Positions 1,806-64,000 of a stretch of 64,000 nt of DNA are shown piece after piece (position 1 is the first letter of the stretch; each line of letters starts with the position of its first letter). Where the stretch lies: assembly GCA_900128395.1 (NCBI GenBank), contig LT649240.1:1-64000 (forward strand), in the 5' to 3' direction. The notes beneath the pieces are model-generated. The model was given only the letters and a program-made list of their open reading frames with translations, had not been told where the DNA came from and did not search any database. The position numbers and the translations under genes are program-made. The DNA is from Stramenopiles sp. TOSAG23-2 (taxonomy: Eukaryota).

Positions 1806-2139
1806 AGAACATGCTGTCATATGAATTGCTTCATATAGTAAAAATTGCAAATTTTTGATATATATAACAATGTATTATTTTACATATAAGTACTATGTAG
1901 TACATACAAATAGCATTGCACTTTTTCATTTTACATAGAAATAGCATTGTAAAGAATAATGGATGAAAAAAAACGACTGTTTTATTATTATTATTGCACA
2001 ATTCATCACATATATATGTTGTGGTTTTAAGATAGCAGATATATGTTGTGGTTTTAAGATAGCAGAAAAAAAAAAAAACATATCACATCCACATCCACAT
2101 CCACTACAACATCCACATCCACTACAACATATCACAAAC

Positions 2140-5100
2140 ATGCCCCTTCGTCGCCGTCATCGCCACCTCTCTCAAAGGAAAAAAAGACACTCCTCCTCCT
2201 CCTCCTCCACCTCCACCTCCTCCTCAAAAAATAAAAATAATTACATTCTATTTTTCTCTGACGTCACCAAAAACGATGCTCATAAAGTAGGTGGAAAAGG
2301 TGCAAATTTAGGTGAATGTTTACGTGCTGGCTTAAACGTACCTCCAGGATTTTGTATCACAGCAAATGCATTCAAAAAACAAATGGAATATTCCAATATT
2401 AAATCAACCAATTGCTGCCAAAACAACAACAACAACAACAACAATAACATCGTCGCAAATAACATTTTAACACTTCAATTCTTACCATCCCTATTAAAAG
2501 AAATTAAATTAGCATATAAAAAACTTGGTTCCCAAATGGTAGCAGTAAGATCATCTGCCACCGCAGAGGACTCTGCAACTGCATCGTTCGCTGGGCAACT
2601 GGAAACATATTTAGGCATAAATGGGGAAGAATCGTTATTGTTAGCTGTCAAAGAGTGTTGGGCTTCATTATTTTCTGAACGCGTAGCTAGCTATAGCCAT
2701 TCCACCACTAATATTACCAATCTATTAGATAAAATATCATGTTGTGTAGTAGTACAAGTAATGATCGATGCTGATGCAGCTGGTGTTGCATTTACAGCAA
2801 ATCCTATGACACGAAATAGAAATGAAATTGTAATAACATCAAATTTTGGACTTGGTGAATCTGTTGTAAGTGATATAGTGACGCCAGATACTTTCATTCT
2901 TGATCATGATGGCAATTTAATAACAAAAACTATTTCTGAAAAAAATAAAATGGTAGTGTTGATTAATAATAATAAAAATGGTAGGGATGATGATATCAAT
3001 AATAATAATAACAAGAAGAAGAAGAAGAAACAGCAACAAAAATCATCAATTCAAAATCCGGGATCGACGGATAGTGGTGATATGTGCGGTAGGTAAAATA
3101 TAAATATGCTTTTCACATATATATATGACAAACATTCACTAACATGTAATCGTTATTTTTATTATCGTATCACACATTGTCGTCGTCTATAATCAATATT
3201 GTCTGGTTGTCTTAATAATGTCGTCGTCGTCGAATCGGTATTGTCGCAAACGTCTTCGACTCCACCTATATACCTTTGATCGTATTGTCACTCCACAAAC
3301 TTGGTGCACTATATTAGCTCCACAAACACAGTGCAGGACTATCCCACAAACACAGTGCAGGACTATCCCACAAACACAGTGCAGGACTATCATAAAAAAT
3401 GTGCCAAAATCAAAACAAAAGAAATCTTCAATCAACAATAACAATCTCCAATCAATTGTAACATTATGCAAAACAGTCGAAGCACATTATAATTCACCAC
3501 AAGATATTGAATGGGCATGTATAAACAATGAAATATATTTATTACAAAGTAGACCTATCACAACGTTGGGGGTAGAAAAAGATCATCCGCATCAGCAAAT
3601 TTGTAGGTAAAATATAATATCCTGCACCGTGTTGGCGTATTCTATACTCCTGCACACACATATATATATATGACAAACATTCACTAACATGTAATCGTTA
3701 TTTTTATCATATCTCATATTGTCGTCGTCGTCTAATCGGTATTGTCGTCGTCTATAATCGGTATTGTCGTCGTCGTCTATAATCGGTATTGTCGTCGTCG
3801 TCTATAATCGGTATTGTCTGGTTGTCTATAATCGGTATTGTCGTCGTCTATAATCGGTATTGCCGCAAACGTCTTCGACTCCACCTATATACCTTTGATC
3901 GTATTGTCACTCCACAAACCTGGTGCACTATATTAGCTCCACAAACACAGTGCAGGACTATCCCACAAACACAGTGCAGGACTATCAGCAGGACTGTCAC
4001 GGTGAATGAATTTGATTTTAAAATTAGATCAACTGATTGGATAACAACATGTAATGCGCAAGAAATGTTTCCTGGTCCTGGAACACCATTAACTATTTCT
4101 ACTTTTGGCAATGGTATTGAAATTGCAATGCAACGCTTGCATGTTGAATTTGGTGTCCTTGATAAAGTTTCCAAACATAAAGATCCACGCGCACCATGGT
4201 TCTATGGACATTTCTTCATAAATATGACAAATATTTTAGAAGTTACAATGCGTTTGCCACTGGGAAATCATGCAAAATCAAATGCAGAAATGAGCTTGCT
4301 AGGGCGTAAAAACCCAAAGGAAACGTTAGAGCAACTTGAATCGGTACATGGTGAATCGTTTTTGATTAAAAAATTAATAAATGGTTTATTTTATGCGAAG
4401 GCGATTGCATTTGCACCTTGGCGGATACCGACAATGGAGAAGCGAAAAATACAAGTAAAAGACTTATTGCGTGAATTGCCAAATGAAACTCCAATATCAC
4501 TCTATAATCGCATTGATCATTTATTGCCAGAGTATAATAATCAATGGTCAGATGGCATTTTAACGAGTTCACCAAGTGCTGGATGGATGCTTTTAATTAT
4601 GAAATTAATTGCAAAATCAAGTAGTGATATGTGGTGTAGGTAAAATATAAATATGCTTTTCACACACACACACACACACATATATATATGTAACAAACAT
4701 TCACTAACATGTAAGCATTATTTTTTATCGTATCACACCCGCTGAAATCGACCTACCTTTGGTTGTATTGTCGTATCACACATTGTCGTCTAATTGGTAA
4801 TGTCGTTGTATAATCGGTATTGTCGTCGTCTAATAATCGTATTGTCGCATACGTCTAATAATCGTATTGTCGTCGTCTAATAATCGTATCGTCGTCGTCT
4901 AATAATCGTATTGTCGCATACGTCTTCGTCTCCACAAACCTGGTGCACTATTTACCTCCACTTATGCTGGGATGTAGCTGTCGAACGCCTATCAGAGCTT
5001 TCAACTGTTTTATCTGATTCTGCTGGTAATAATGTTGAAAGTGCAGATGTGGTTAAGACATTAAATTTATTGAAGGAATGTATTGCAAATAGTGAATATG

Positions 5101-6083
5101 GTGAAGTATTTTCTTCATGGCCGGTGGACAAAGCAATTGATTTTTTGGAAAATGTCGATAATGATGCAAAAGAGGAAAAATTACACATTGTATATCGTAA
5201 TTTTATAAATCGCCATGGTCATAGATGCGTTAAAGAAGCAGAACTACGTAATAAAGATTGGTCAGAAGATCCAACTACATTGATAAAACTTTTACAAGAA
5301 AATGTTAATTCGTATAATACTATTGGTAGTCGTACCATTGAAACTTCCATTTCGTTAGATGAAATGTTAAAAACAAAATGGTCACATGTATCATGTTTGA
5401 CTAGACCTATTCTTCGTTATGCCGTCCATCAAACAAGAGCTGGGGTTGCTAGAAGAGAATATGGAAAATCAATGCAGGTACACGTGCATAGTTCATTTAA
5501 ACATGCATATAGACGATTAGGAAGATTATGTTACAAATTAAATATAATCCCAGAAATAGATTTAATATATTTTTTCACCCATACTGAATTGAAAGATTTG
5601 TTAAATTATGAGGACATGTCACAAATGAACAATCTTCATATGATTAAACGTGCTGTACAGCGTAGGGAAATATTAGCTATTCAAGAGACATATTCTTTTG
5701 ATGATTTAGGATGTGGTATTCCAGCACCAAGTACAGCTAGTGATTATGAACAAGGTGTAACTGGAGATGAATATACCGGAACACCAGTGTCTGTTGGCAC
5801 CGTTATTGGTATTGCAAGAGTTGTACGCACTTTAAATGATGCTGGAAATTTAAAATGTGGTGAAATATTGGTATGTCCATTTACTGATGTTGGTTGGACA
5901 CCATATTTTTCATTAGCATCTGGTCTAATAACAGAAATTGGTGGATTATTATCACATGGTGCAGTAGTTGCACGCGAGTATGGCTTACCATGCGTCGTCA
6001 ATGTGAAAGGTGCTACTCATATGATTCAAACTGGTGATAGAATTTGTTTAAATGGAGAGAATGGGAGTGTAAGAATTTTATAG
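2140..6083 (+). CDS. PEP-utiliser of the rifamycin phosphotransferase (Rph)/PigC-like architecture: ATP-grasp PPDK_N, central domain, C-terminal His-swivel. Exons 2140-3088, 3318-3602, 3937-4635, 4978-6083
   Basis: Motifs VGGKGANLG, VAVRSSATAEDSATASFAGQ, GLGESVVS, PQDIEW...LLQSRPITT and TEIGGLLSHGAVVAREYGLP. Four ORF pieces join in frame through three phase-1 GTAGGT...TAG introns. Confidence 0.85.
3089..3317 (+). other. Spliceosomal intron A (member of a repeated intron family)
   Basis: GTAGGT donor, CACTAAC at 3137-3143, first downstream AG at 3316-3317; removal restores the reading frame. Confidence 0.7.
3603..3936 (+). other. Spliceosomal intron B (member of a repeated intron family)
   Basis: GTAGGT donor, CACTAAC at 3682-3688, no AG until 3935-3936; removal restores the reading frame. 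Confidence 0.7.
4636..4977 (+). other. Spliceosomal intron C (member of a repeated intron family)
   Basis: GTAGGT donor, CACTAAC, TAG acceptor at 4977; joining gives W-S-VERLSEL in frame. Confidence 0.7.
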
Positions 6084-6165
6084 AAAAAAAATACTATATA
6101 TATATATAAAACGGTGTTTCCTACGAGCGTACGTATCAGCAGGTATGCATATGCACATAGAAGAT

Positions 6166-7248
6166 TTAAAACGCAGCAACCATTTTTTTCATATCATATC
6201 CTAACTTCTCCAAATTAGGCTTACATGCAAATTTAATCATTGGTGGTGGTCCACATAATAATATTAACGTCTCATTGCTTGGCTTTGGCATATGGGTATC
6301 AATCATCTTGTCATCAATAAAACCGGTTGAATATTCCCAATCTTTTGGTGGACGATCCAATGTATACCATATTTTAAATCGATCTTTATATTCCATTGCC
6401 CAATCTTCCAACATATCACGAATCAATATATCATCTGCTGTTTGATTTGCAAATAATAATGAAATTTCAGTTTGATCATTTTCTTTATCTAATAATATAG
6501 CTTTAATGATTTGTAACATTGGAGTTACACCAGTACCACCAGCTATCATACCAAGCTTAGTTTTATTATTACCATATTTTTTCCACGAGCTACGTCCATA
6601 ATATTCAATATGTCCATATGGTCCTGCAATTTGTAACTCATCACCAACTTGTAAACTATTCATATATTGACTAACTTTGCCACCGTTTGGAAAACGTTTG
6701 TTTACATCTTTGAAATATACTTTTAAAATTAAATCAAAATAATTCACGTCGCAATCCAATGAACATGGCGTATATTTTCTTACAATTTCTTCTCTCCATT
6801 CCCCTGTTTCCTTATTGAAATCACCTTCACCGGAACCATAATCTTTTGGCCTTGCTGGACCACGTTGACTTTCAGGCACTGGATTCCACTCCTCATGTCC
6901 TGCAGCTATATTTGGTACATATACTTTAATGCATTTTCCTAATGGTAAACCAAGCACAGGTGCTGATTTTGGTAAAGCAAAACGAAAACGTCTTACATCA
7001 TGAGTAATATCTTCCTTTTCAATTAATTCAACCTGTTTTCTAGTGGAATTTAAAAATTTATTTCCACTTACTTTGTAAGGTAACTTATTTTTTTTACTAC
7101 TACTACTATTATTATTATTATTATTATTATCACGCATTAGAAAAAAATAACATGTTGCAACAATTGCAGTAGCAACAGTAATTAGTATACGAGTATCTAG
7201 ACCATCGCCATTATTAATACCAGTGGATTGAAGGATATTATATGACAT
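6166..7248 (-). CDS. NADH-cytochrome b5 reductase with N-terminal membrane anchor
   Basis: HDVRRFRFALP, LGLPLG, RKYTP, FPNGGKVSQY, GMIAGGTGVTPMLQ, CGPPPM. Start placed at MSYNIL. Confidence 0.93.
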   Translation of the reverse strand: MSYNILQSTGINNGDGLDTRILITVATAIVATCYFFLMRDNNNNNNNSSSSKKNKLPYKVSGNKFLNSTRKQVELIEKEDITHDVRRFRFALPKSAPVLGLPLGKCIKVYVPNIAAGHEEWNPVPESQRGPARPKDYGSGEGDFNKETGEWREEIVRKYTPCSLDCDVNYFDLILKVYFKDVNKRFPNGGKVSQYMNSLQVGDELQIAGPYGHIEYYGRSSWKKYGNNKTKLGMIAGGTGVTPMLQIIKAILLDKENDQTEISLLFANQTADDILIRDMLEDWAMEYKDRFKIWYTLDRPPKDWEYSTGFIDDKMIDTHMPKPSNETLILLCGPPPMIKFACKPNLEKLGYDMKKMVAAF

Positions 7249-8430: not shown

Positions 8431-9224
8431 TTCAGGACGAGGACAAAGAGATTTATACATATGCCGTATAAGGGATATGACAATCGTGCATTTAGTGACC
8501 CAATATTTTTACAAGTTCATTTTCCTTTATGTGCCTATACTATGCAGTTGTATATCTCTGCACCACCTATTTTCATGTTTTTATCAGGGTTATAGCAATG
8601 GACGTAAAGCTAAACAGCCTCCTTGATTTCACTAGGTCCATCAATACTATTTTCATGTTATTTGTTACGCACTTCTTTTCTAAAATCAATCATCATCAAC
8701 AATGATGTTTAGGCTGTGCCAATCTAATAATAAATCATCTCTCATTTTTTACTCAAACAGTACATGATATATTGCGTTAGTTCATTAAAAAATAATAATA
8801 TCATACATATGATAAAGTGTGAATAAATGTATCCAATCCAACTATAGATTTGAAAGAATAACAATTAATTCATAACGTTGCAAATATCATTTGGTAAGAG
8901 CAAAAAAAGAGAGAGAGACGGATGAAAGGGATACAAGGACTTGTTAGACGTTGGAGTTTGAACAAGAATAATAGACAAGACGGTATATCATTTACAGACG
9001 AAGAGAAAAAAGGTGCTTTTTTTGTTGTAGCATTATACAAGGACTTGTTAGACGTTGGAGTTTGAACAAGAATAATAGACAAGACGGTATATCATTTACA
9101 GACGAAGAGAAAAAAGGTGCTTTTTTTGTTGTAGCATTGCTTTTTGTTGCTGCTGGTGGATATTATTATTATACAAAGAAAGGCACAAACAAAACATCAT
9201 AAAATAAACACACATATATATATA

Positions 9225-9800
9225 ATGGGAAACACACAAAGTGAAGAAAATAGTGACAATAGTCACGATAAGGATAAAAACAATAACAATGGGGATGAAG
9301 AAGAATATGAAAAAATGTGTAATGAATACGACAGAAAAACCAGTTCTAGGCAAATATATGCAAAAGAAGCTATGAAATTACATGAAGAAGGTAAACTGGT
9401 TATCATTGATACGAGAGAAGTATACGAACATGAATATGCTGCAATTCCTAATGCAAAAATCTTAAGTCCGACAACGCTTGGGATGACGTTAGTTAGTACC
9501 GTTGGCACTGGAATGCGATATCAACAAAATATTCCATTGGAAGAGCTTAAAAAGATACCAGAAGATGTAACTATTGTTTGTAGTTGCACTGCTGGACTTA
9601 GAAGCGGATATTGTGCCGTGGATTTAAGTAAAAGATTACAACGCCCGGTATTAAATTTACATGGTGGAATTATCAGTTGGTTCAATGCTGGTGGTAAAGT
9701 CGTCAATCCAAAAACCAATGAACAGGTAGATACTGTACATACGTATGGTGAAAACTGGGCAAAATATGTTAAGGGTGGCAAAGGCATTTTCAAATTGTGA
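9225..9800 (+). CDS. Rhodanese-domain protein, probably N-myristoylated
   Basis: IIDTREVYEH...AIPNA, active-site loop CTAGLRS, NLHGGIISW; N-terminus MGNTQS. Confidence 0.85.
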   Translation: MGNTQSEENSDNSHDKDKNNNNGDEEEYEKMCNEYDRKTSSRQIYAKEAMKLHEEGKLVIIDTREVYEHEYAAIPNAKILSPTTLGMTLVSTVGTGMRYQQNIPLEELKKIPEDVTIVCSCTAGLRSGYCAVDLSKRLQRPVLNLHGGIISWFNAGGKVVNPKTNEQVDTVHTYGENWAKYVKGGKGIFKL

Positions 9801-10334
9801 TTAGATATATCATATTTCAAGAAGATATAGAATACTGTACATACGTATGGTGAAAACTGGGCAAAATATGTTAAGGGTGGCAAAGGCATTTTCAAATTGT
9901 GATTAGATATATCATATTTCAAGAAGATATAGATATGATATATATATATGATACTTGAAAAAAAGATACGCGTATTTTTTTTAAATTTTAAATATATACC
10001 TGTAAGGGGTATTAAAACAAAAAGGAGAGAAGAGCGGTGGTGCCAATTTTAGAGGGGAAATTGTTTTTATTATTCGTATGGTCTGTATGTGTATACGTGT
10101 GTGTGTGTGTGTATTCTTTTAAAAAATATAAAAAAAATACTTTTTATTTTATAGTGTATGATAGATAGAGACTAGATATTTATTAATATGATATAGATAT
10201 TTATATTCTCTTACTCATATATATGTGTTTTTCTCTTACTCATATATATATATATATATTTATAATATATTATATTATAAAAATATAAAAAAGAGTATTC
10301 GTACGAAACTTCGTATTAGCTTGCGGCGGCGCAA

Positions 10335-28567: not shown

Positions 28568-29864
28568 TATATAGAAAAATCTAACATTGTCTGGAGAGTT
28601 CCAGTTGGTTGTGACTATTCTGGTTTCTTTGTTGAAGTTTTAAATTTTTTTATAGGTCTTGATAATATTCTAGGAAACGCCGTTGGTGATAATAATTTAC
28701 ACTTGGATATAGGAACTTGTTCAAATGAATTTCTAAAAACATTAGAAACACGTGAGGCAACAATAATACAAAAATATCAAGCTAATTATAATAACAGATA
28801 TGCAATGAAGAATAACCCAGATTGGACAAATACAATTTTGATTCATCACAAGCTACCAAATAACCCATTTTCAACATTTCAACCATCCAATCGACCAAAG
28901 ATAATAATAGCTCGTGTTATGATTGAGTCAAATATACTTCCTAGGAATGAAATTCAATATTTAAAAAACGACATTGATTATATTTGGGTACCTACTTCAT
29001 GGCATGAAAATATTTATGTAAATCATGGAATAAATAAAAATAAATTATTTGTAGTCAATGAACCAATGAGTTTTAAGCAATTTGAAACAAAAACAAATTC
29101 GGCAACCTATCGGTTTCTGTCTGTCTTCAAATATGAACATAGAAAAGGTGGTGATATATTACTTAATAGTTATTGGAATGCATTTACATTAAAGGATGAT
29201 GTTGAATTGGTTATCAGAAGTTATTGTCGTTTCTGTCTGTCTTCAAATATGAACATAGAAAAGGTGGTGATATATTACTTAATAGTTATTGGAATGCATT
29301 TACATTAAAGGATGATGTTGAATTGGTTATCAGAAGTTATTGTCCTTCATAGTTACCTGGAACAAAAAATTTAGAGAATATATTTAAATCTATTGCCAAA
29401 CAAAATTTTGGCAAATTGTTAAGTGAATTGCCTAAAGTTACATGGGTGAAAGAAGAATTAAATCGAAAAGAGATGTTTAATTTGTATAAATCTGCATCAG
29501 CATTTGTATTACCGACCAGAGGTGAAGGATGGTGCTTACCATGTGTTGAAGCGATGTCTATGGGTTTACCCATAGTTGTAACAAATTTTAGTGGGCCTAC
29601 AGAATATTTAAATGAAAAATATTCATATCCAATACACCAATACATAATAATATTAATCATGATGGAACAGCAGAACCAGATTCAAATGCATGTACCAACT
29701 TGATGCAACATTTATATAAAAATCCAGCAGAGGGAAAGGAAAAAGGAGCTTTAGCAAGTAAATTTGTTGCAAAACATTTATCACCAAATATTATCGCAAA
29801 GAAAATTTTGAAGAAATTGCATGAGTATGTTTCGTATGATGATGAAGATAAAAGTGAATTATGA
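28415..29864 (+). CDS. GT-B/GT4 glycosyltransferase with signal anchor and C-terminal KSEL; frame disrupted in this assembly
   Basis: DYIWVPTSW, FLSVFKYEHRKGGDILL, AFVLPTRGEGWCLPCVEAMSMGLP. Disrupted by a ~115-bp tandem duplication (about 29113-29343), an in-frame TAG near 29350 and an 8-bp duplication (ccaataca) near 29630. Confidence 0.75.
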
Positions 29865-47646: not shown

Positions 47647-48384
47647 TGTTTTTCCGCGTGATTTTCTACTTTCTTTTTTATATATATATATTCACTATAT
47701 CTATCCTTTCCTACCATCACATCTATTTATTATTTGATGATAAAAAAGATATTATGTGTGGTAAGACTCAACAAAAAAGAATGAAGTGGTGCACCTGTGT
47801 TGTGGTGCAAACTGGTATATTCACTATATCTATCCTTTCCTACCATCACATCTATTTATTATTTGATGATTAAAAAGATATTATGTGTGGTAAGACTCAA
47901 CAAAAAAGAATGAAGTGTGCAAGTGGTGCACTTGTTGTGTGGTGTCGCTACCACACCGTATAACAGGCATATTGGCAAACGTGGCATTGTATCTTTCCTC
48001 ATCATGGTTATACCAGGTGCCCAGGTATACTAATGCTATACTCATAGAAGTGTGACCATCAATATAGATAATCCAGTAATCATTGGGATCACATCATACT
48101 ATACATACACATTTATATAGATCTTATGTGTAAGAGAGAGACAAGATCATCATATAGTACCATAGATATATATATATTATCATATAAATAATTATTATAT
48201 AAATTCATTCTAGTGATATATATATATATACATACACATTTATATAGATCTTATGTGTAAGAGAGAGACAAGATCATCATATAGTACCATAGATATATAT
48301 ATATTATCATATAAATAATTATTATATAAATTCATTCTAGTGATATATATATATATATATAAATTGTATCATTGAATAGTAATA

Positions 48385-53937: not shown

Positions 53938-53971
<34 letters not shown>

Positions 53972-54137
53972 TTTGTTTGGCAAATTTATACGCTCGTACA
54001 TATATATATATATATATATATGTTCATCGTACGTACATCTTGTTACAATTTAACACACACACACACTTTGTTTGGCAAATTTATACGCTCGTACATATAT
54101 ATATATATATATATATGTTCATCGTACGTACATCTTG

Positions 54138-54830
54138 TTACAATTTATTACGACTGTTATATCTCTCTACATATTTCATACCACTAGTATACGTATTTGG
54201 CACATGTTTTTCATATGCTCTTTTAAAACTATCTCTTGCACACATTCTTCCTAAATAATTATTCACATAGGAAAGATCATCTTTATACCATCCTAATGAT
54301 TTTGCCCATAAAAATGTATGCGTACATAAAATATCCAAACCTGTTATACTATCTCCAAACATGTATTGATTACTCTCCAGCACTTTTGTATAAATTGGAA
54401 ATTGCTTCTCAAAATATGTTTTAGCGGCATCAACAGCAGTTGGTGCTTCACCATAAATATGTTTTAATCCAATATGTTTACGATGCATATACAAACTTTG
54501 TGCATCAATTTCAATTACAAGGGTATAACATAAAGCATCATATTTTGCTCTTTCTTTTGACCCAGCTTTTGGAATATAATTTCCTTTTCCATACTGATCA
54601 CACAAATAGTTAACAATTACAGCACTTTCATTTAATACGAAATCATCATCAACTAAGGTAGGTACTTTACCATATGGATTCACTCCGGACATATATTCTG
54701 CATAATCTTTCGTATTTTTTGCTGCTCCTACACGTGGATTAATTGGTATCAATTCATATTCTAATTCCAATTCCTCCAACATGAATAAAGGCCTTGCTGT
54801 TCTCATAAATGGTGCCCCAAATAATTTCAT
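54138..54830 (-). CDS. Glutathione S-transferase
   Basis: NPYGKVPTLVD, LNESAVIVNYL, YMFGDSITGLDI. Confidence 0.9.
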   Translation of the reverse strand: MKLFGAPFMRTARPLFMLEELELEYELIPINPRVGAAKNTKDYAEYMSGVNPYGKVPTLVDDDFVLNESAVIVNYLCDQYGKGNYIPKAGSKERAKYDALCYTLVIEIDAQSLYMHRKHIGLKHIYGEAPTAVDAAKTYFEKQFPIYTKVLESNQYMFGDSITGLDILCTHTFLWAKSLGWYKDDLSYVNNYLGRMCARDSFKRAYEKHVPNTYTSGMKYVERYNSRNKL

Positions 54831-55452
54831 TATGTGTAATTTTCTTGATTCTGATAATGCATTAAATATATGATCTACGTCTTGTATATCTATTTTATAC
54901 AAAACTATTTGCTGTTCTCATAAATGGTGCCCCAAATAATTTCATTATGTGTAATTTTCTTGATTCTGATAATGCATTAAATATATGATCTACGTCTTGT
55001 ATATCTATTTTATACAAAACTATTTCTCCACACATACGAGGACACACCTCGTACACATATATATATATCTATTGATTGTTCAATTATACTGTAGAAAAGA
55101 TCTATATATGTTTTTTTCTTCTCCTCTCTCTCTGGCGGCGCTGTGGTAAGACGGTAAAGGATTAAAGGTAAATAGCATTGTAACTGGATCATTTAAGGTT
55201 TATAATTCTTAGGAGCTTCTCTCTCTGTGGTGCACAATTTTATAATATTATTTTTTAAATAAGTAAACGTTTTTTATTATTATTATTTGTTAGATACATG
55301 TACATATATTAAAAATACGTTATGTGTACACATATCTCAATAAAATATATGTGTAGATATATTATTATACATATAATCACATATATACAAAGATAAAATC
55401 ATAGAAACAATACAAAAACAAAATAAAATTAGTGTAAAATAATAATTAAAAG

Positions 55453-56864: not shown

Positions 56865-57686
56865 TTATGGTGACGTCACCTTTTGCTCATTATTTGGTTG
56901 GTATTTACTCAGTGCGGCTTCTACACCAAATGTTTTATTCAAAAATGGACGTACATCATCTAATGGTTTCAGTCTCTTCACAAAATTTTCTAATATACTC
57001 AATGCATTATCTCTGCAATTACCATACCAACTTAAAATTGGCACACCATTTCTAGGTTGTGGTAAAAATGACATTGGGTTGTTATCTACAAGTATCGTAC
57101 GCGTCATATCGTTTTGGTCACATACTTTGGTCAAATCCTTTACAAACGTTTTGCCTTTAAATTTGGTACACTCCGTGCGGTAATAGCATCCAATGAAAAT
57201 TTCTTTCTTTGGATCTAATAAGTTCAAAATTGGTTTAGCATAGTAACTTTCAGATGCTGTGAAAGCATATACATCATGTTCCAACGCTAAGTTTCTCAAG
57301 AAACGATCTACGCCAGGGCGTTTTCTAACTACCACGTCGTGCAAAGTGCCATCAAGTGCTTGGATTTTCACCAATATTCCTTCCACTTTGTCACTACGTT
57401 TCGATTCATTGCTACCATCCATGCCAGTACGTAATTTTGCTACGTTCTCATTGACTTCTGCATGAATCAGTGTCTCATCAATATCAAGTACTACTTTTAA
57501 TCTTTGTGTTTTTTTAATATTACTGCCGCTATTGTCTCTACCAGACACGCAACAGACATCATTGAAGACTTCTGCATGAATCAGTGTCTCATCAATATCA
57601 AGTACTACTTTTAATCTTTGTGTTTTTTTAATATTACTGCCGCTATTGTCTCTACCAGACACGCAACAGACATCATTGAACATCAT
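56865..57686 (-). CDS. FCP1/SCP-like (NIF, HAD) CTD phosphatase
   Basis: VVLDIDETLIH, RKRPGV..FL, FTAS...YA, VKDL, LVDN. The N-terminal 38 aa are duplicated in frame (likely artefact). Confidence 0.92.
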   Translation of the reverse strand: MMFNDVCCVSGRDNSGSNIKKTQRLKVVLDIDETLIHAEVFNDVCCVSGRDNSGSNIKKTQRLKVVLDIDETLIHAEVNENVAKLRTGMDGSNESKRSDKVEGILVKIQALDGTLHDVVVRKRPGVDRFLRNLALEHDVYAFTASESYYAKPILNLLDPKKEIFIGCYYRTECTKFKGKTFVKDLTKVCDQNDMTRTILVDNNPMSFLPQPRNGVPILSWYGNCRDNALSILENFVKRLKPLDDVRPFLNKTFGVEAALSKYQPNNEQKVTSP

Positions 57687-58519
57687 ATTTGTTATTTATT
57701 AAATATTGTTGTATTTCAAATCTTATATTGTTTGGATATAATGATTTGTTTTGTATATATATATATATATAATATATAAATATTTCTATCTTCATGATAT
57801 GTACATTCTATGTGTGTGTTTATATATATAATATATATTCTCGTGTGGTAGATGTTTGTTTATTGCAATAGCAGGTACAGAGTATTGAATACGGTCGAGG
57901 AATGAAATTTGTCAAAAAAAAAAAAAAAAAACCGATCGATTGGTTAGGATTAGGGTTAGGGACAGTCCCCCCTTTTTGCATTTTGCACATCGAGGTGAAA
58001 AATCCTTCTTTTCACTTTTTTTATTTATAGTTAATAGTCTACTCACATTTTCCCCTATCATTTGAATCCAATTGAAATTTTCTCCCCGTTGTCCCGTTTT
58101 CTAATTGGTTGTGAATTGGTGAATATTGCAACTCACAATTCATATAAATATGCATCTGCCTATCTGCAATTCTATTTCCTATACTATTTACATGTAAATT
58201 ATTATTATTATTATTTGATACAACTATACTTTCGTAACTTATATGTATGCACTGAAATATATAAACTATAATAACTGCCAACATGATAATAAGATGTACA
58301 TACACAGAAACAACGATATCAAAAACATATTGAAGATAATATTACTAATAAAACCAACATAATATAATAATATATTAAGTTAAAAAAGATGCCTTTAACA
58401 AATTCTGGAAAACGTTTTGTTGGTAAACCAAGAAATGCATCACGTTCACGTACTGACATATTGAAGATAATATTACTAATAAAACCAACATAATATAATA
58501 ATATATTAAGTAATAAGAG

Positions 58520-59881
58520 ATGCCTTTAACTAATTCTGGAAAACGTTTTGTTGGTAAACCAAGAAATGCATCACGTTCACGTACTGCTGGTGCAACGATG
58601 CCAAGAGCCAAATTAGATACTACTCGTGGAGGCAGGGCTGTAAGTTCTGCGGCAACCACAACGCCTGGGTATCGAAACAATGCAATAACGGCGCAAAGTC
58701 AATGGGGTGGTATAGCGCCAACTGGTAAAGCTGCAGCACAAGCAGCTATATTACAATTTGCCGGTGCTTCTGGTACTATGGGTATAATTTATATTATAGG
58801 AACTTATGTCTTGAGTGTTAGCATTGATGAACAATATAAAGAAAAAAAATTAGAACCAAAAGTATTTTTATCTTTGCCTATCGCGTCATGGTTGTATATT
58901 AAAGGTTTCAGTTATATGTTTGGTTTTATTTATGGCATTCTAATGAAAATGTATTGGAAATGCAATGATTATCAAGGCCGTTCGAAAGTGCGAACATTTT
59001 TTGTATATTTAGTCTTGGATTTTATTTTAGCATGTTGGAATTTAGTTGCGATATTAGTCAATTTAAAAGGAGGTGAAATAGATTTTTATTGGTTCTTTAT
59101 AATAATGTGTTGTTTAAGTATCATATTGATACCATGTGAAATTGTAAAAGTAGTTCATATTATTGATTCAGAAATGCAACGTAAAGCTAATGAAAAGGAA
59201 CGGAAGACGAGAAGAAAGAATAATGGTGAGCAACAACAACAACAACAACAACGAGGGATGAGGCAAGGAGAAGATATTGAATCAAAAGTTAGTGTTGATA
59301 GTATTGAATCGAAATTAACTGATGGTAATGGTAATATGCCAACTGCAGTAGCATCACCAGTGAATACAAACGTTGGGCATATGGAAACGAATATAAATCA
59401 ATTTCAACCATCTGCACCTGCATCATTGAATGGTATTGAATTAAATATTCCAACTCATAATAATAATAATAACAATATGTATGATTTTACATTGGTAAAA
59501 AATGCTCAATTAAAAGCAGCAAAATTTGAAGAAATGTGGGTAAATATGCAACCATGTGGAGGGTTTCATTCAGGTATACAATATTATCCTGAAATATCGA
59601 CGCTAAATGAACATTTAAAAAGTCGTGATTTTGGTATCATTGCAAGTGGTTTAGTTGGTACGGGTACAAGATTATTTTTATATGCTATTGAAGATCATCA
59701 ATTTACCAGTCGCCCTGGTTATGAACAAGCATCTGGTATCTTTTTATGTGAAATAGTATTGAGTACATCTGAGAATGGTGAATATTATTGCAAAGCAACA
59801 TATAAATGTAGCAAACCAGGCTTAGTCGATACATTTCAAAATTATTTAATGTTGCACGAAGTGTTTGGTGAGATGTATTGA
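58520..59881 (+). CDS. Multi-TM protein with C-terminal beta-adaptin appendage-like (platform) domain
   Basis: About four TM segments; C-terminal L...KFEEMW...FGIIASG...RLFLYA...FLCEI...KATYKC. Confidence 0.6.
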   Translation: MPLTNSGKRFVGKPRNASRSRTAGATMPRAKLDTTRGGRAVSSAATTTPGYRNNAITAQSQWGGIAPTGKAAAQAAILQFAGASGTMGIIYIIGTYVLSVSIDEQYKEKKLEPKVFLSLPIASWLYIKGFSYMFGFIYGILMKMYWKCNDYQGRSKVRTFFVYLVLDFILACWNLVAILVNLKGGEIDFYWFFIIMCCLSIILIPCEIVKVVHIIDSEMQRKANEKERKTRRKNNGEQQQQQQQRGMRQGEDIESKVSVDSIESKLTDGNGNMPTAVASPVNTNVGHMETNINQFQPSAPASLNGIELNIPTHNNNNNNMYDFTLVKNAQLKAAKFEEMWVNMQPCGGFHSGIQYYPEISTLNEHLKSRDFGIIASGLVGTGTRLFLYAIEDHQFTSRPGYEQASGIFLCEIVLSTSENGEYYCKATYKCSKPGLVDTFQNYLMLHEVFGEMY

Positions 59882-62320: not shown

Positions 62321-62513
62321 ACATTATCTCTCTCTCTCTCTCTGACATATACAAGAGAGACTAACGTTGTCATTTTACGAAGGTATAGAATGCATATGTA
62401 TATTTTCTTTTATGCAAATGTTTCGTTTTCAGTCATGTATGGTAATTTGTTACCTGGTGTAAAATCACGATCTGGACCATCTTAAGGTATAGAATGCATA
62501 TGTATATTTTCTT

Positions 62514-63197
62514 TTATGCAAATGTTTCGTTTTCAGTCATGTATGGTAATTTGTTACCTGGTGTAAAATCACGATCTGGACCATCTTTAGTAATCATAAC
62601 TGTACGTATAACACCACCAGATGAACCATCTCTTGACATAGCTAATGACAATGCTTTTTTAACAAAAGTTCTGCATTCTTCCCCGGTCATACCTGGTTTA
62701 TATGTTGCATCGCAATATGCATAAATAAATGTCGAACCTGAACCGCCAATAGAGTATGGCTGTCTAACCATGGTACCACCAATCGGTACAGAATAAACTT
62801 GGCCACCATTAACCTCGTCCCAGCCAGCAACGATAATACCAGCCATTAGTTGATCTTTATAGTCATAACAAAATTTACGAAAAAGTGTTGCAGCAGTTTT
62901 TACTTGTGGTTTTTTTTTTTCACCTAATGTTACACCATGGGATGCAAGTTGGTATCGAACTATATCAGAAATGGCTTGTGTATCTGCTGCGGAACCAGAA
63001 CGACAGCAATAGATCGTATCATGTACTTCTGTGAGTTTATCACTAACTCTGTTTGCTACATATGATCCAGTAGATGTTCTACTATCTGCACCAAGTATGA
63101 CACCACCGTCGAATTCAACAGCTATGATAGAAGTACCTGAATCAACTTCACCTTTTTTGTGTATTTCACGCTCTGCCCAATTCCAAATATCAGTCAT
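62514..63197 (-). CDS. PSMB6: 20S proteasome subunit beta-1 (PSMB6/Pre3)
   Basis: [61 protein letters not shown]. Confidence 0.96.
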
Positions 63198-64000
63198 TAT
63201 TTACACACACACACACACAGAAAATTATAAACTTTACTAAATATAATATATATATATATATATATATGTTTGTTTTGTTGTATCCTTTTTTCCCTTTGTA
63301 TATATCATTTCACGCTCTGCCCAATTCCAAATATCAGTCATTATTTACACACACACACACAGAAAATTATAAACTTTACTAAATATAATATATATATATA
63401 TATATATGTTTGTTTTGTTGTATCCTTTTTTCCCTTTGTATATATCTATATACCTATATGATCTGTATATTTTAGTTCGTACATTGTATTATATTCAATA
63501 TAATTAGATCAAATCACTTATTCATTGTTGTTTGCCATTTTCAAATAATCTTAAAAATCTAAATCGATCGATCTTTCAGTACTATGTCTATGTTATTATT
63601 TCTATCATAGTAGAAATATCTAACATTAGTATAATGAATATTATACTTAAACGCTATTTCTATACAAATAAACACAAAGGAAGTGGACTCTCTGCATACA
63701 ACTCCAACATTCAGCAGCAGGAAAATAATGTATTATATTATATATATTGGATATTCAAGTGTGAGATGGCAATATTTCCAATACTGAACAGTGTTATTTA
63801 TACTATGTCTATGTTATTATTTCTATCATAGTAGAAATATCTAACATTAGTATAAGGAATATTATACTTAAACGCTATTTCTATACAAATAAACACAAAG
63901 ACGTGGACTCTCTGCAACAACTCCAACATTCAGCAGGAAAATAATGTATTGGATATTCAAGTGTGAGATGGCAATATTTCCAATACTGAACAGTGTTATT

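Follow-up and report, generated by a model that had tools for sequence, protein, structure and literature searches.

The stretch of DNA analysed here, called the window below, is the first 64,000 nucleotides (nt) of contig LT649240.1 (positions 1 to 64,000) from Stramenopiles sp. TOSAG23-2 (assembly GCA_900128395.1), and our subject is one of its protein-coding genes, which contains three mutually similar predicted introns. The assembly is eukaryotic, AT-rich, and incomplete (32.8 Mb in 9,146 contigs), and the species was detected in marine runs. The gene lies on the forward strand (+), as do all of its parts described below, at positions 2140–6083, with an alternative in-frame ATG at 1963, and encodes a rifampicin-phosphotransferase-like protein composed of a PPDK_N domain, a central domain, and a PEP-utiliser domain. 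A Pfam search of the gene product placed PF01326 (PPDK_N) over exons 1 and 2 and PF00391 (PEP-utiliser) in exon 4. Homologous proteins of approximately 780–1,560 amino acids, with a top identity of 57%, belong to the same three families and are annotated as rifampicin-phosphotransferase-like or as putative PEP synthase.

The predicted introns occupy positions 3089–3317 (intron 1, 229 nt), 3603–3936 (intron 2, 334 nt), and 4636–4977 (intron 3, 342 nt). All three are in phase 1, all end TAG/CT (the slash marks the exon border), and all have the canonical features of an intron, namely a GT donor, a branch point, an AG acceptor, and an open reading frame (ORF) that is restored upon removal. Each contains stop codons in all three frames, and excision of all three leaves a single stop-free ORF of 1,012 amino acids (from the ATG at 2140) or 1,071 amino acids (from the ATG at 1963). 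A first-pass annotation of the window had proposed three homologous phase-1 introns with shared blocks in an otherwise intron-free region; the restoration of the ORF and the alignments bear out the introns at these coordinates, and the setting agrees with the other 28 long ORFs scanned in the window (22 with Pfam matches, several spanning the entire model in one ORF).

All three introns open with GTAGGTAAAATATAA and contain the 22-nt block ACAAACATTCACTAACATGTAA, which includes a CACTAAC branch-point consensus. In global alignments, the numbers of identities, mismatches, and gap columns were 221, 6, and 109 for introns 1 and 2; 202, 13, and 141 for introns 1 and 3; and 264, 28, and 92 for introns 2 and 3. 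The 5′ ends agree in all three introns and the 3′ ends agree in introns 1 and 2, while the final approximately 25 nt of intron 3 are different. Arrays of 22–25-nt units and CA/TA microsatellites lie inside the introns. The similarity also continues into the exons, as the first-pass annotation had remarked, and further than the few bases it had allowed: introns 1 and 2 are followed by 49 identical exon bases, the exon bases preceding introns 1 and 3 are alike at 13 of 16 positions, and BLAST aligned 3073–3175 with 4620–4738. The shared phase and the shared TAG/CT of introns 1 and 2 thus reflect one copied junction; the pattern stands as an observation, and not as a set of independent events for these two introns.

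At up to three mismatches, the 22-mer ACAAACATTCACTAACATGTAA had three occurrences in the assembly, all in the host gene (reversed control, 2). When introns 2 and 3 were used as DNA queries against the assembly, full-length relatives were found at the host locus only, a lower bound given that the assembly is incomplete; the remaining matches were to the left arm of intron 2 on contig C1454 or to the CA/TA microsatellite.

Empty alleles and the limits of the insertions

A metagenome scan with exon 3 as the query confirmed five loci (L040–L044) among 104 candidate stretches. L040 shares 98.2–99.5% identity with the window across exons 2–4 and 93.5% over 1900–3049, a region with repeat-length gaps; judged by these identities, it is from the same species as the window. 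It is empty at all three sites and has one stop-free frame of 1,024 codons. The other four loci (L041–L044, with 83–44% protein identity) likewise have one ORF across whatever sites they cover.

Comparison with L040 placed the limits of the inserted DNA beyond the predicted splice sites, so that the splice coordinates of the earlier annotation hold but the introns are not the insertion units. Insertion 1 (3050–3391, 342 nt) replaces 14 native bases, insertion 2 (3603–3998, 396 nt) replaces 26, and insertion 3 (4635–4982, 348 nt) replaces 6. We searched for a target-site duplication (TSD) at the three sites against the empty allele and found none; the longest direct repeat was 3 nt at sites 2 and 3, and there was none at site 1. 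The check for empty sites and TSDs suggested by the first-pass annotation thus showed empty sites and no TSD.

Parts of two insertions would remain in the mRNA. In insertion 1, these are a 5′ filler (3050–3088), whose last 16 nt match the native exon end preceding intron 3 at 13 of 16 positions, and a 3′ end (3318–3391), detected by TRF and not found in L040, that consists of three 24-nt units of a dispersed repeat family encoding (PQTQCRTI)3. In insertion 2, the right arm (3937–3998), also not in L040, holds two 24-nt units and a 12-nt truncated unit. If spliced, the three insertions would change the mRNA by +99, +36, and 0 nt, that is, by +33, +12, and 0 codons, and the frame is kept at all three sites. 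Site 3 lies in a conserved motif, where the spliced product would read W-S-V-E in place of the W-S-T-E of the empty allele (Thr to Val), and the six replaced bases also switch the serine codon family. The native parts of the gene have hardly changed. Identity to L040 is 98.2% in exon 2 (3392–3602), 99.5% in exon 3 (3999–4634), and, for exon 4 up to the stop codon (4983–6083), 98.4% over 4983–6300; the 896 codons compared contain 8 synonymous and 2 non-synonymous changes and 0 stops (2 synonymous and 0 non-synonymous in the 366 codons of exon 4).

Filled and empty forms in sequencing runs

Four of 24 listed sequencing runs were compared, all as contigs: X2, which may be part of the source data of the window; X5 (DNA); and X15 and X16 (RNA; X16 polyA). 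X5, X15, and X16 come from studies other than that of the window, and the contigs represent populations and are unphased. Position 4634 joined to 4983 through six other letters occurs in X15 and X16 and also in X5; splicing was rejected as the explanation of this joint, which corresponds to the empty allele at site 3. An RNA contig (X15 record 1) crosses site 1 without the insertion. Empty forms are present in X5, X15, and X16, and the empty allele is common in all three of these environmental runs. Filled junctions were found in X2 (unit/exon 2, exon 2/intron 2, unit/exon 3, exon 3/intron 3, and intron 3/exon 4) and in X5 (unit/exon 2 and intron 3/exon 4). Furthermore, X15 and X16 hold the site-2 insertion with two junction versions that differ from that of the window. 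One retains the last nine native bases, which are absent from the window, and the other has a complete final unit, with a unit count uncertain by multiples of 24 at the word length used. The lengths after the AG are 41 and 74 nt in the variants, 62 nt in the window, and 26 nt in the native form, all 2 mod 3.

The first-pass annotation had worried that the similarity reaching into the exons might reflect misassembly of a repeat. Two observations call for caution about the contig. The 5′ junction of insertion 1 (3050–3132) was uncovered among the pieces listed for the four runs, beyond which there were 169 further pieces. In addition, the window contains about 12 near-exact head-to-tail duplications of 95–140 nt with 96–100% identity, several within ORFs, which are probably contig-join artefacts; eleven two-copy examples lie at 8931–9138, 9730–9933, 29113–29344, 47687–47921, 48100–48361, 53957–54147, 54794–55025, 57453–57680, 58325–58586, 62380–62587, and 63163–63446. 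That a single repeat was positioned three times is nevertheless very improbable, even though these duplications have the same scale as the 135-nt block shared by introns 1 and 2 and X2 may be among the window's own source data, since the two copies of the block are 619 nt apart and not adjacent, X2 holds the interior specific to intron 1 without mismatch and the shared block at a depth of 31.6 against 13–20 for its neighbours (approximately twofold), and the filled junctions of X5 and the site-2 insertion of X15 and X16 come from other studies. The filled junctions thus largely remove the worry, and misassembly of the three copies is unlikely. An empty conspecific allele, together with filled and empty forms in other runs, indicates that the insertions are recent polymorphic gains and not misassemblies; we are almost certain that they are real, and the recent intron gain proposed earlier is upheld.

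A dispersed repeat family at the insertion ends

The ends of the insertions belong to a repeat family dispersed in the genome. Its 12-nt core has 114 exact matches in the assembly (control, 0) on at least 28 contigs; 100 of these matches were listed, and stretches from 28 contigs besides that of the window were examined. The 24-nt end unit has 29 matches on 12 contigs at up to three mismatches (control, 0). In insertion 2, the unit is inverted at the left end and direct at the right end, and the left arm matches an intron on C1454 at 37 of 37 positions; insertions 1 and 3 have no left arm. Contigs C623 (within the intron of a kinase gene), C806 (between a pair of converging stops), and C690 also carry inverted arrays of the family. 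A 77-nt unit whose 14-nt ends are perfectly inverted and whose interior is like the arrays of the window is present on C690 and C4930. We consider the family to be probably the remnant of a non-autonomous DNA transposon.

We examined 45 array starts, some of which come from duplicated or paralogous loci. A donor-like hexamer lies within 35 nt of 13 of them (background, 5.4%), and 10 of these 13, including that of intron 2 of the window, are preceded by at least 77 open codons. A further seven array starts follow the end of a long ORF, three abut a start codon on the opposite strand, and eight are within ORFs. In total, 20 of the 45 lie at splice donors, stops, or starts of other genes, among them genes for GH92, a calcium-dependent kinase, MCM2, a 2OG dioxygenase, a myotubularin, and an EF-hand protein. 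The arrays read away from coding DNA in a constant orientation, one-armed inserts are found within exons, and the units end in T-runs. This proximity of the arrays to gene boundaries could result from selection on one-sided deletions or from targeting. Spacings between family motifs are multiples of three in 12 of 12 exonic cases against 49 of 119 non-coding cases, a contrast of little weight, since 8 of the 12 exonic spacings, which come from paralogous genes, were assigned to that class on account of their position in an ORF, and the tally excludes three spacings close to start codons (L061, L066) and one from intron 2. In-frame inserts made of family units alone, with spacings of 12–27 nt (multiples of three), were also seen in ORFs of paralogous genes at L016, L017, L022, and L064, the last of which has an endonuclease/exonuclease/phosphatase domain. 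At window position 6164, an X16 RNA contig has a family unit directly behind the stop codon of the adjacent reductase gene, a place at which the window and L040 both lack such a unit; as far as this contig comparison goes, it is a further polymorphic array at a stop codon.

Nine other introns have only the arm in common with the introns of the window, being alike at the ends and not in their interiors. The dioxygenase intron on C690 shares CTAACATGTAA and a 24-nt block (22 of 24 positions) with the window introns, has a 121-nt AG-free zone, and repeats approximately 200 nt of intergenic DNA located 1 kb away, which indicates that local copying is not unique to the PPDK_N gene. The family-bearing intron of MCM2 lies at a position that relatives with 78–89% identity read through, two of them on contigs of 62 and 87 kb; this suggests that it too is a gain, provided that the relatives were called as single ORFs on DNA. 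The closest named matches of this MCM2 are plant and animal proteins of approximately 50% identity. The first five bases of the MCM2 intron (L053:2680–2920, +), GTACG, are the same as the five that follow its acceptor, a repeat that looks like a staggered-break duplication that supplied the donor. Creation of new stops by truncation at the arrays was considered and rejected for MCM2, in which the stop is at the ancestral position.

Two further modules accompany the family. One, containing CCCTAACCCTAAC, is joined to family arrays at L057:1400–2100, L059:1–100, L060:320–360, and L077:1–130; it resembles telomeric repeats or a telomerase template, and three of its loci scanned with Rfam gave no support. 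The second, GCGAGCGAAGCGAAGC, has 13 matches (control, 1) on contigs C690, C1117, C5295, C6170, and C8157 and adjoins family arrays on four of these five. A viral origin of the family was rejected, because its six single exact matches in viral contigs, none of them in an array, were treated as chance. The predicted RNA fold of the whole of insertion 2 is not special (z = 0.30), though the arms pair in the predicted structure.

Predicted splicing of the insertions

The introns are likely to be spliced as modelled, a reading drawn from the canonical signals and from the frame, which is kept at all three sites and in both additional site-2 variants. The predicted branch-point A is at 3142 in intron 1, 175 nt from the acceptor; at 3687 in intron 2, 249 nt from the acceptor; and at 4707 in intron 3, 270 nt from the acceptor. 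The AG counts between branch point and acceptor are 0, 0, and 1, against 6.4, 9.3, and 10.9 expected in a shuffle test; the single AG of intron 3 lies 7 nt past the branch-point A, and CTAAT motifs closer to the acceptor of this intron are alternative branch points. The components of the insertions are recognizable within this layout. Intron 1 combines a 5′ end like that of intron 3 with a 3′ end like that of intron 2, and intron 2 contains the left arm (core at 3620–3631), a CA/TA microsatellite, and a 25-nt array.

Several observations weigh against splicing as modelled. No spliced joints were found in the contigs of RNA runs X15 and X16. In X15 record 2 and X16 record 10, exon 3 follows directly on the 3′ portion of intron 2, and in X16, a polyA run, the intron-2/exon-3 contig has a depth of 3.7, near the 2.8–8.4 of its exon contigs; this intron sequence may represent retention, pre-mRNA, or DNA. 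The shuffle test counts repeat units as independent, so the significance of the AG depletion is overstated, and the branch-to-acceptor distances of 175–270 nt exceed those predicted for seven other introns of the family, which are 25–56 nt in six of them and 121 nt in the remaining one. The RNA runs are a weak test in both directions, because they are mostly empty at sites 1 and 3 and poorly cover the border between exon 2 and intron 2. In X16, 3484–3627 is without listed cover, and the exon-2 contig of X15 stops at 3589; therefore, neither run could display a spliced joint at site 2. Gaps in RNA cover over the 5′ portions of the introns were given no weight.

The filled allele might instead be unspliced or poorly spliced and dying, with its splice signals as mere passengers. 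The intron-2 sequence kept in the RNA runs, the lack of a listed spliced joint, and the prevalence of the empty allele in the three environmental runs agree with this explanation, which we judge unlikely, because the frame is intact at three sites and in two extra variants, 896 codons show 0 stops and 2 amino-acid changes, AG is almost absent past the branch points, three successive frame-keeping insertions are improbable in a dead gene, and the cover of X15 and X16 could not have revealed the site-2 joint. If splicing fails, the locus is merely a mutated allele of modest interest.

Proposed origin and rival mechanisms

The insertions are derived and polymorphic, replace 6–26 target bases without a TSD, carry the ends of a dispersed non-coding family, and are mosaics of one another. 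It is very likely that they derive from the family with local copying, as the local hopping proposed by the first-pass annotation would have it. By its sequence, intron 1 is chimeric between introns 3 and 2; it carries the exon flanks of both, which points to a template switch between homologous introns and not to a fixed-ended unit. When breaks are repaired by templated synthesis, the result is target loss without a TSD, patchwork filler, and secondary changes at the junctions. The target loss without a TSD, the patchwork filler, and the altered junctions at this locus thus favour repair at breaks, fed by a family similar to foldback elements or MITEs (miniature transposable elements with inverted repeats), and we lean, with modest confidence, towards this route.

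We propose that the ancestral gene was an intronless enzyme gene that gained three insertions recently, in some alleles only. At each site, resection of a DNA break would have been followed by templated filling-in with template switches, the ends of the transposon-remnant family provoking or patching the breaks. The first insertion was probably at site 2, because both arms and three junction variants are found there; the native sequence at the right end of this site resembles a family variant and may have guided priming. The donor/branch-point module of site 2 would then have been copied to site 3, and a copy switching between introns 3 and 2 would have been placed at site 1, bringing the exon flanks of both. 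We infer this order (site 2, then site 3, then site 1) from the anatomy of the insertions and from contigs. The insertions would persist because the spliceosome can excise most of each in frame: with a GTAGGT donor and CACTAAC as a branch point near the start, the acceptor would be the first AG past it that can be used, which would let AG-free arrays expand within the intron while selection keeps only the junctions that preserve the frame. The chain as a whole, from recent family-derived insertions through local copying and break repair to splicing that removes most of each in frame, we regard as evenly poised between right and wrong. The following findings count against it: the proposed sequence of events was read from unphased contigs of populations; 33 flanking ORFs contained no mobilising enzyme; a MULE profile, the only DDE family searched, had 0 matches in the incomplete assembly; and Helitron_like_N (PF14214) gave nothing over the cut-off in the same assembly, with one weak sub-cut-off match without the motif.

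A broader alternative is a templated end-extension system, with a reverse transcriptase (RT) or a repair polymerase using a dedicated template, which would add fixed-ended units to either side of breaks, copy nearby intron modules, and build introns genome-wide without a transposon moving as a unit, the array ends advancing to a donor, stop, or start. Such a system is doubtful, though conceivable in an RT-type or telomerase-like form because the units are alike at one end and variable at the opposite one: over 208 anchors, agreement with the consensus falls from 0.89 beside the anchor to 0.16–0.51 at 12–20 nt. The more specific version, in which broken ends prime on an RNA bearing the 3′ end of a family unit, repeated jumps yield arrays of 5′-truncated units, and the gene's own pre-mRNA is also copied, is unlikely. 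The gradient at the unit ends, the constant reading of the arrays away from coding DNA, the one-armed exon inserts, the T-runs at unit ends, and the RT fragments in the genome (eight matches) speak for it; the family motif is lacking at seven of the eight RT loci, with a single two-mismatch match at the eighth, and an Rfam scan of 12 family loci for a known template RNA found nothing over threshold except one tRNA. The foldback arms of Drosophila FB elements also consist of short-to-long unit series. The unit series seen here would therefore suit foldback arms as well, modular arms are described in PMC4079207, and the 77-nt unit with perfect inverted ends on two contigs is a further point against RT-driven extension.

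The first-pass annotation had assigned the introns to an Introner-like family, which would mean that a non-autonomous element with fixed ends hopped three times and that its junctions changed afterwards. All three introns do share the donor and branch-point module, insertion 2 has inverted arms, the site-2 variants reveal change after insertion, and, according to PMC9860276, codons are gained or lost with some Introners and a TSD is missing from many. However, the central module is found at this locus only, the left arm occurs in insertion 2 alone, target bases were lost at three of three sites with a TSD at none, insertion 1 bears the exon flanks of sites 2 and 3, and the other family introns are alike at their ends and not in their interiors. 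A classic Introner is accordingly an improbable source, and membership of such a family, given a core in three copies only, exon-spanning similarity, target deletion, extra codons, and no TSD, was not sustained.

A non-autonomous rolling-circle element of the HINE/DINE-1-like Helentron type, which would account for local copying, the lack of a TSD, and the capture of flanking DNA, is less probable still. The short inverted arms, microsatellite, and central tandem repeats of insertion 2 recall the HINE/DINE-1 layout, and family units end in T-runs; by contrast, HINE empty sites are unmodified with a TT target according to PMC4067079, and here 6–26 bases are lost, T's flank site 2 on one side only, and no Rep-helicase over the cut-off was found in the incomplete assembly.

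Comparison with known systems

Introners (Gozashti et al. 2022, PMC9860276; 2025, PMC12130899) are likewise recent and similar introns of spliceosomal type tied to a non-autonomous repeat in aquatic protists, and inverted ends without a TSD and codon-adding insertions are known there too. Recent gain, with an empty site in close relatives, is common to both (here, L040, X5, X15, and X16). In PMC9860276, Introners are recognized by similarity between introns that comes close to both splice borders and starts within 5 exonic or 10 intronic bases of the boundary, by at least four similar introns in non-paralogous genes, and by sequences not dominated by short repetitive motifs. Unlike such Introners, the window introns have similarity that runs into the exons instead of being confined to the intron and a core in three copies in one gene (a lower bound) instead of at least four; they are mosaics rich in short tandem repeats and thus of low complexity, target bases were deleted, and other introns with the family are alike at the ends only.

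The polymorphic introns newly gained by Daphnia pulex (Li et al. 2014, PMC4202315), which were attributed to double-strand-break repair, are like those of the window in several respects: one species has alleles with and without them, direct repeats lie inside them, the inserted DNA does not end at the splice sites, and at some loci exon deletion accompanied the gain. In contrast to Daphnia as described there, the filler here can be traced to a dispersed family and to other new introns nearby in the same gene, up to 33 codons are added, and the predicted branch points lie 175–270 nt from the acceptor.

Foldback transposons such as Tetris (PMC4079207) also have inverted short-repeat arrays around a variable non-coding middle (compare C623, C806, C690, and insertion 2) and no coding capacity; an autonomous partner was not found here. 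The arm architecture of foldback elements or of MITEs with terminal inverted repeats is seen in insertion 2, C623, C806, and C690 and not in insertions 1 and 3. Whereas Tetris has arms of up to 1.7 kb and TSDs of 8–10 bp, the arms here measure tens to hundreds of bases, no 8–10-bp TSD is present at the three sites for which an empty allele is known, many of the arrays have a single arm, and there is no MULE match in the assembly. The non-autonomous HINE/DINE-1 Helentrons of PMC4067079 share short inverted repeats near the ends, a microsatellite, central tandem repeats, and the lack of a TSD; unlike them, the sites here are modified, the TT target is lacking at two of three, and a Rep-helicase partner was not found.

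Distant branch points with AG-exclusion zones (Gooding et al. 2006, PMC1431707) are similar in that the branch point is far upstream and AG is depleted up to the acceptor. They differ in that the zone described here consists of newly formed repeat DNA within polymorphic protist introns and the use of the branch points is predicted. The open-access literature, as far as its text was accessible, gave no account of such introns, whether as polymorphic stramenopile introners or as foldback or MITE elements with terminal inverted repeats in intron gain; the supplementary Introner catalogues of PMC9860276 and PMC12130899 might include the organism.

Other features of the window

In the 5′ region of the gene, 2012–2066 is an exact 27-nt tandem duplication that is single-copy in L040. 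Just upstream of the gene, 30–1368 holds nested inverted repeats with arms of 42–55 nt that are 93–96% complementary and enclose approximately 900 nt; this structure has one copy in the assembly, lacks the dispersed-family motif, and looks like a separate foldback-type element. On the reverse strand (−), 1588–1728 is a tRNA-like gene with an apparent intron of approximately 60 nt (Rfam tRNA, 23.2 bits, E-value 0.015, below the gathering score), which was missed by ARAGORN in bacterial mode and whose Leu identity was assigned by eye alone.

Implications

Rarely are the empty allele, several filled ones, and the donor repeat all available for an intron that has just arisen. The locus stands between the Introners made by transposons and the introns made by break repair, and if the end-extension system were true, introns would arise by a route that is neither that of Introners nor that of random break filler. 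The published Introner filters on exon similarity, low complexity, and fewer than four copies would exclude cases of this kind, so that surveys would miss them. The family arrays at donors, stops, and starts form a testable pattern. Furthermore, the locus suggests that repeat DNA can be removed by splicing when an early branch point is combined with the choice of the first AG, that codon replacement makes imprecise gain tolerable in loops, and even where a motif is conserved, and that one new intron can give rise to others within its gene.

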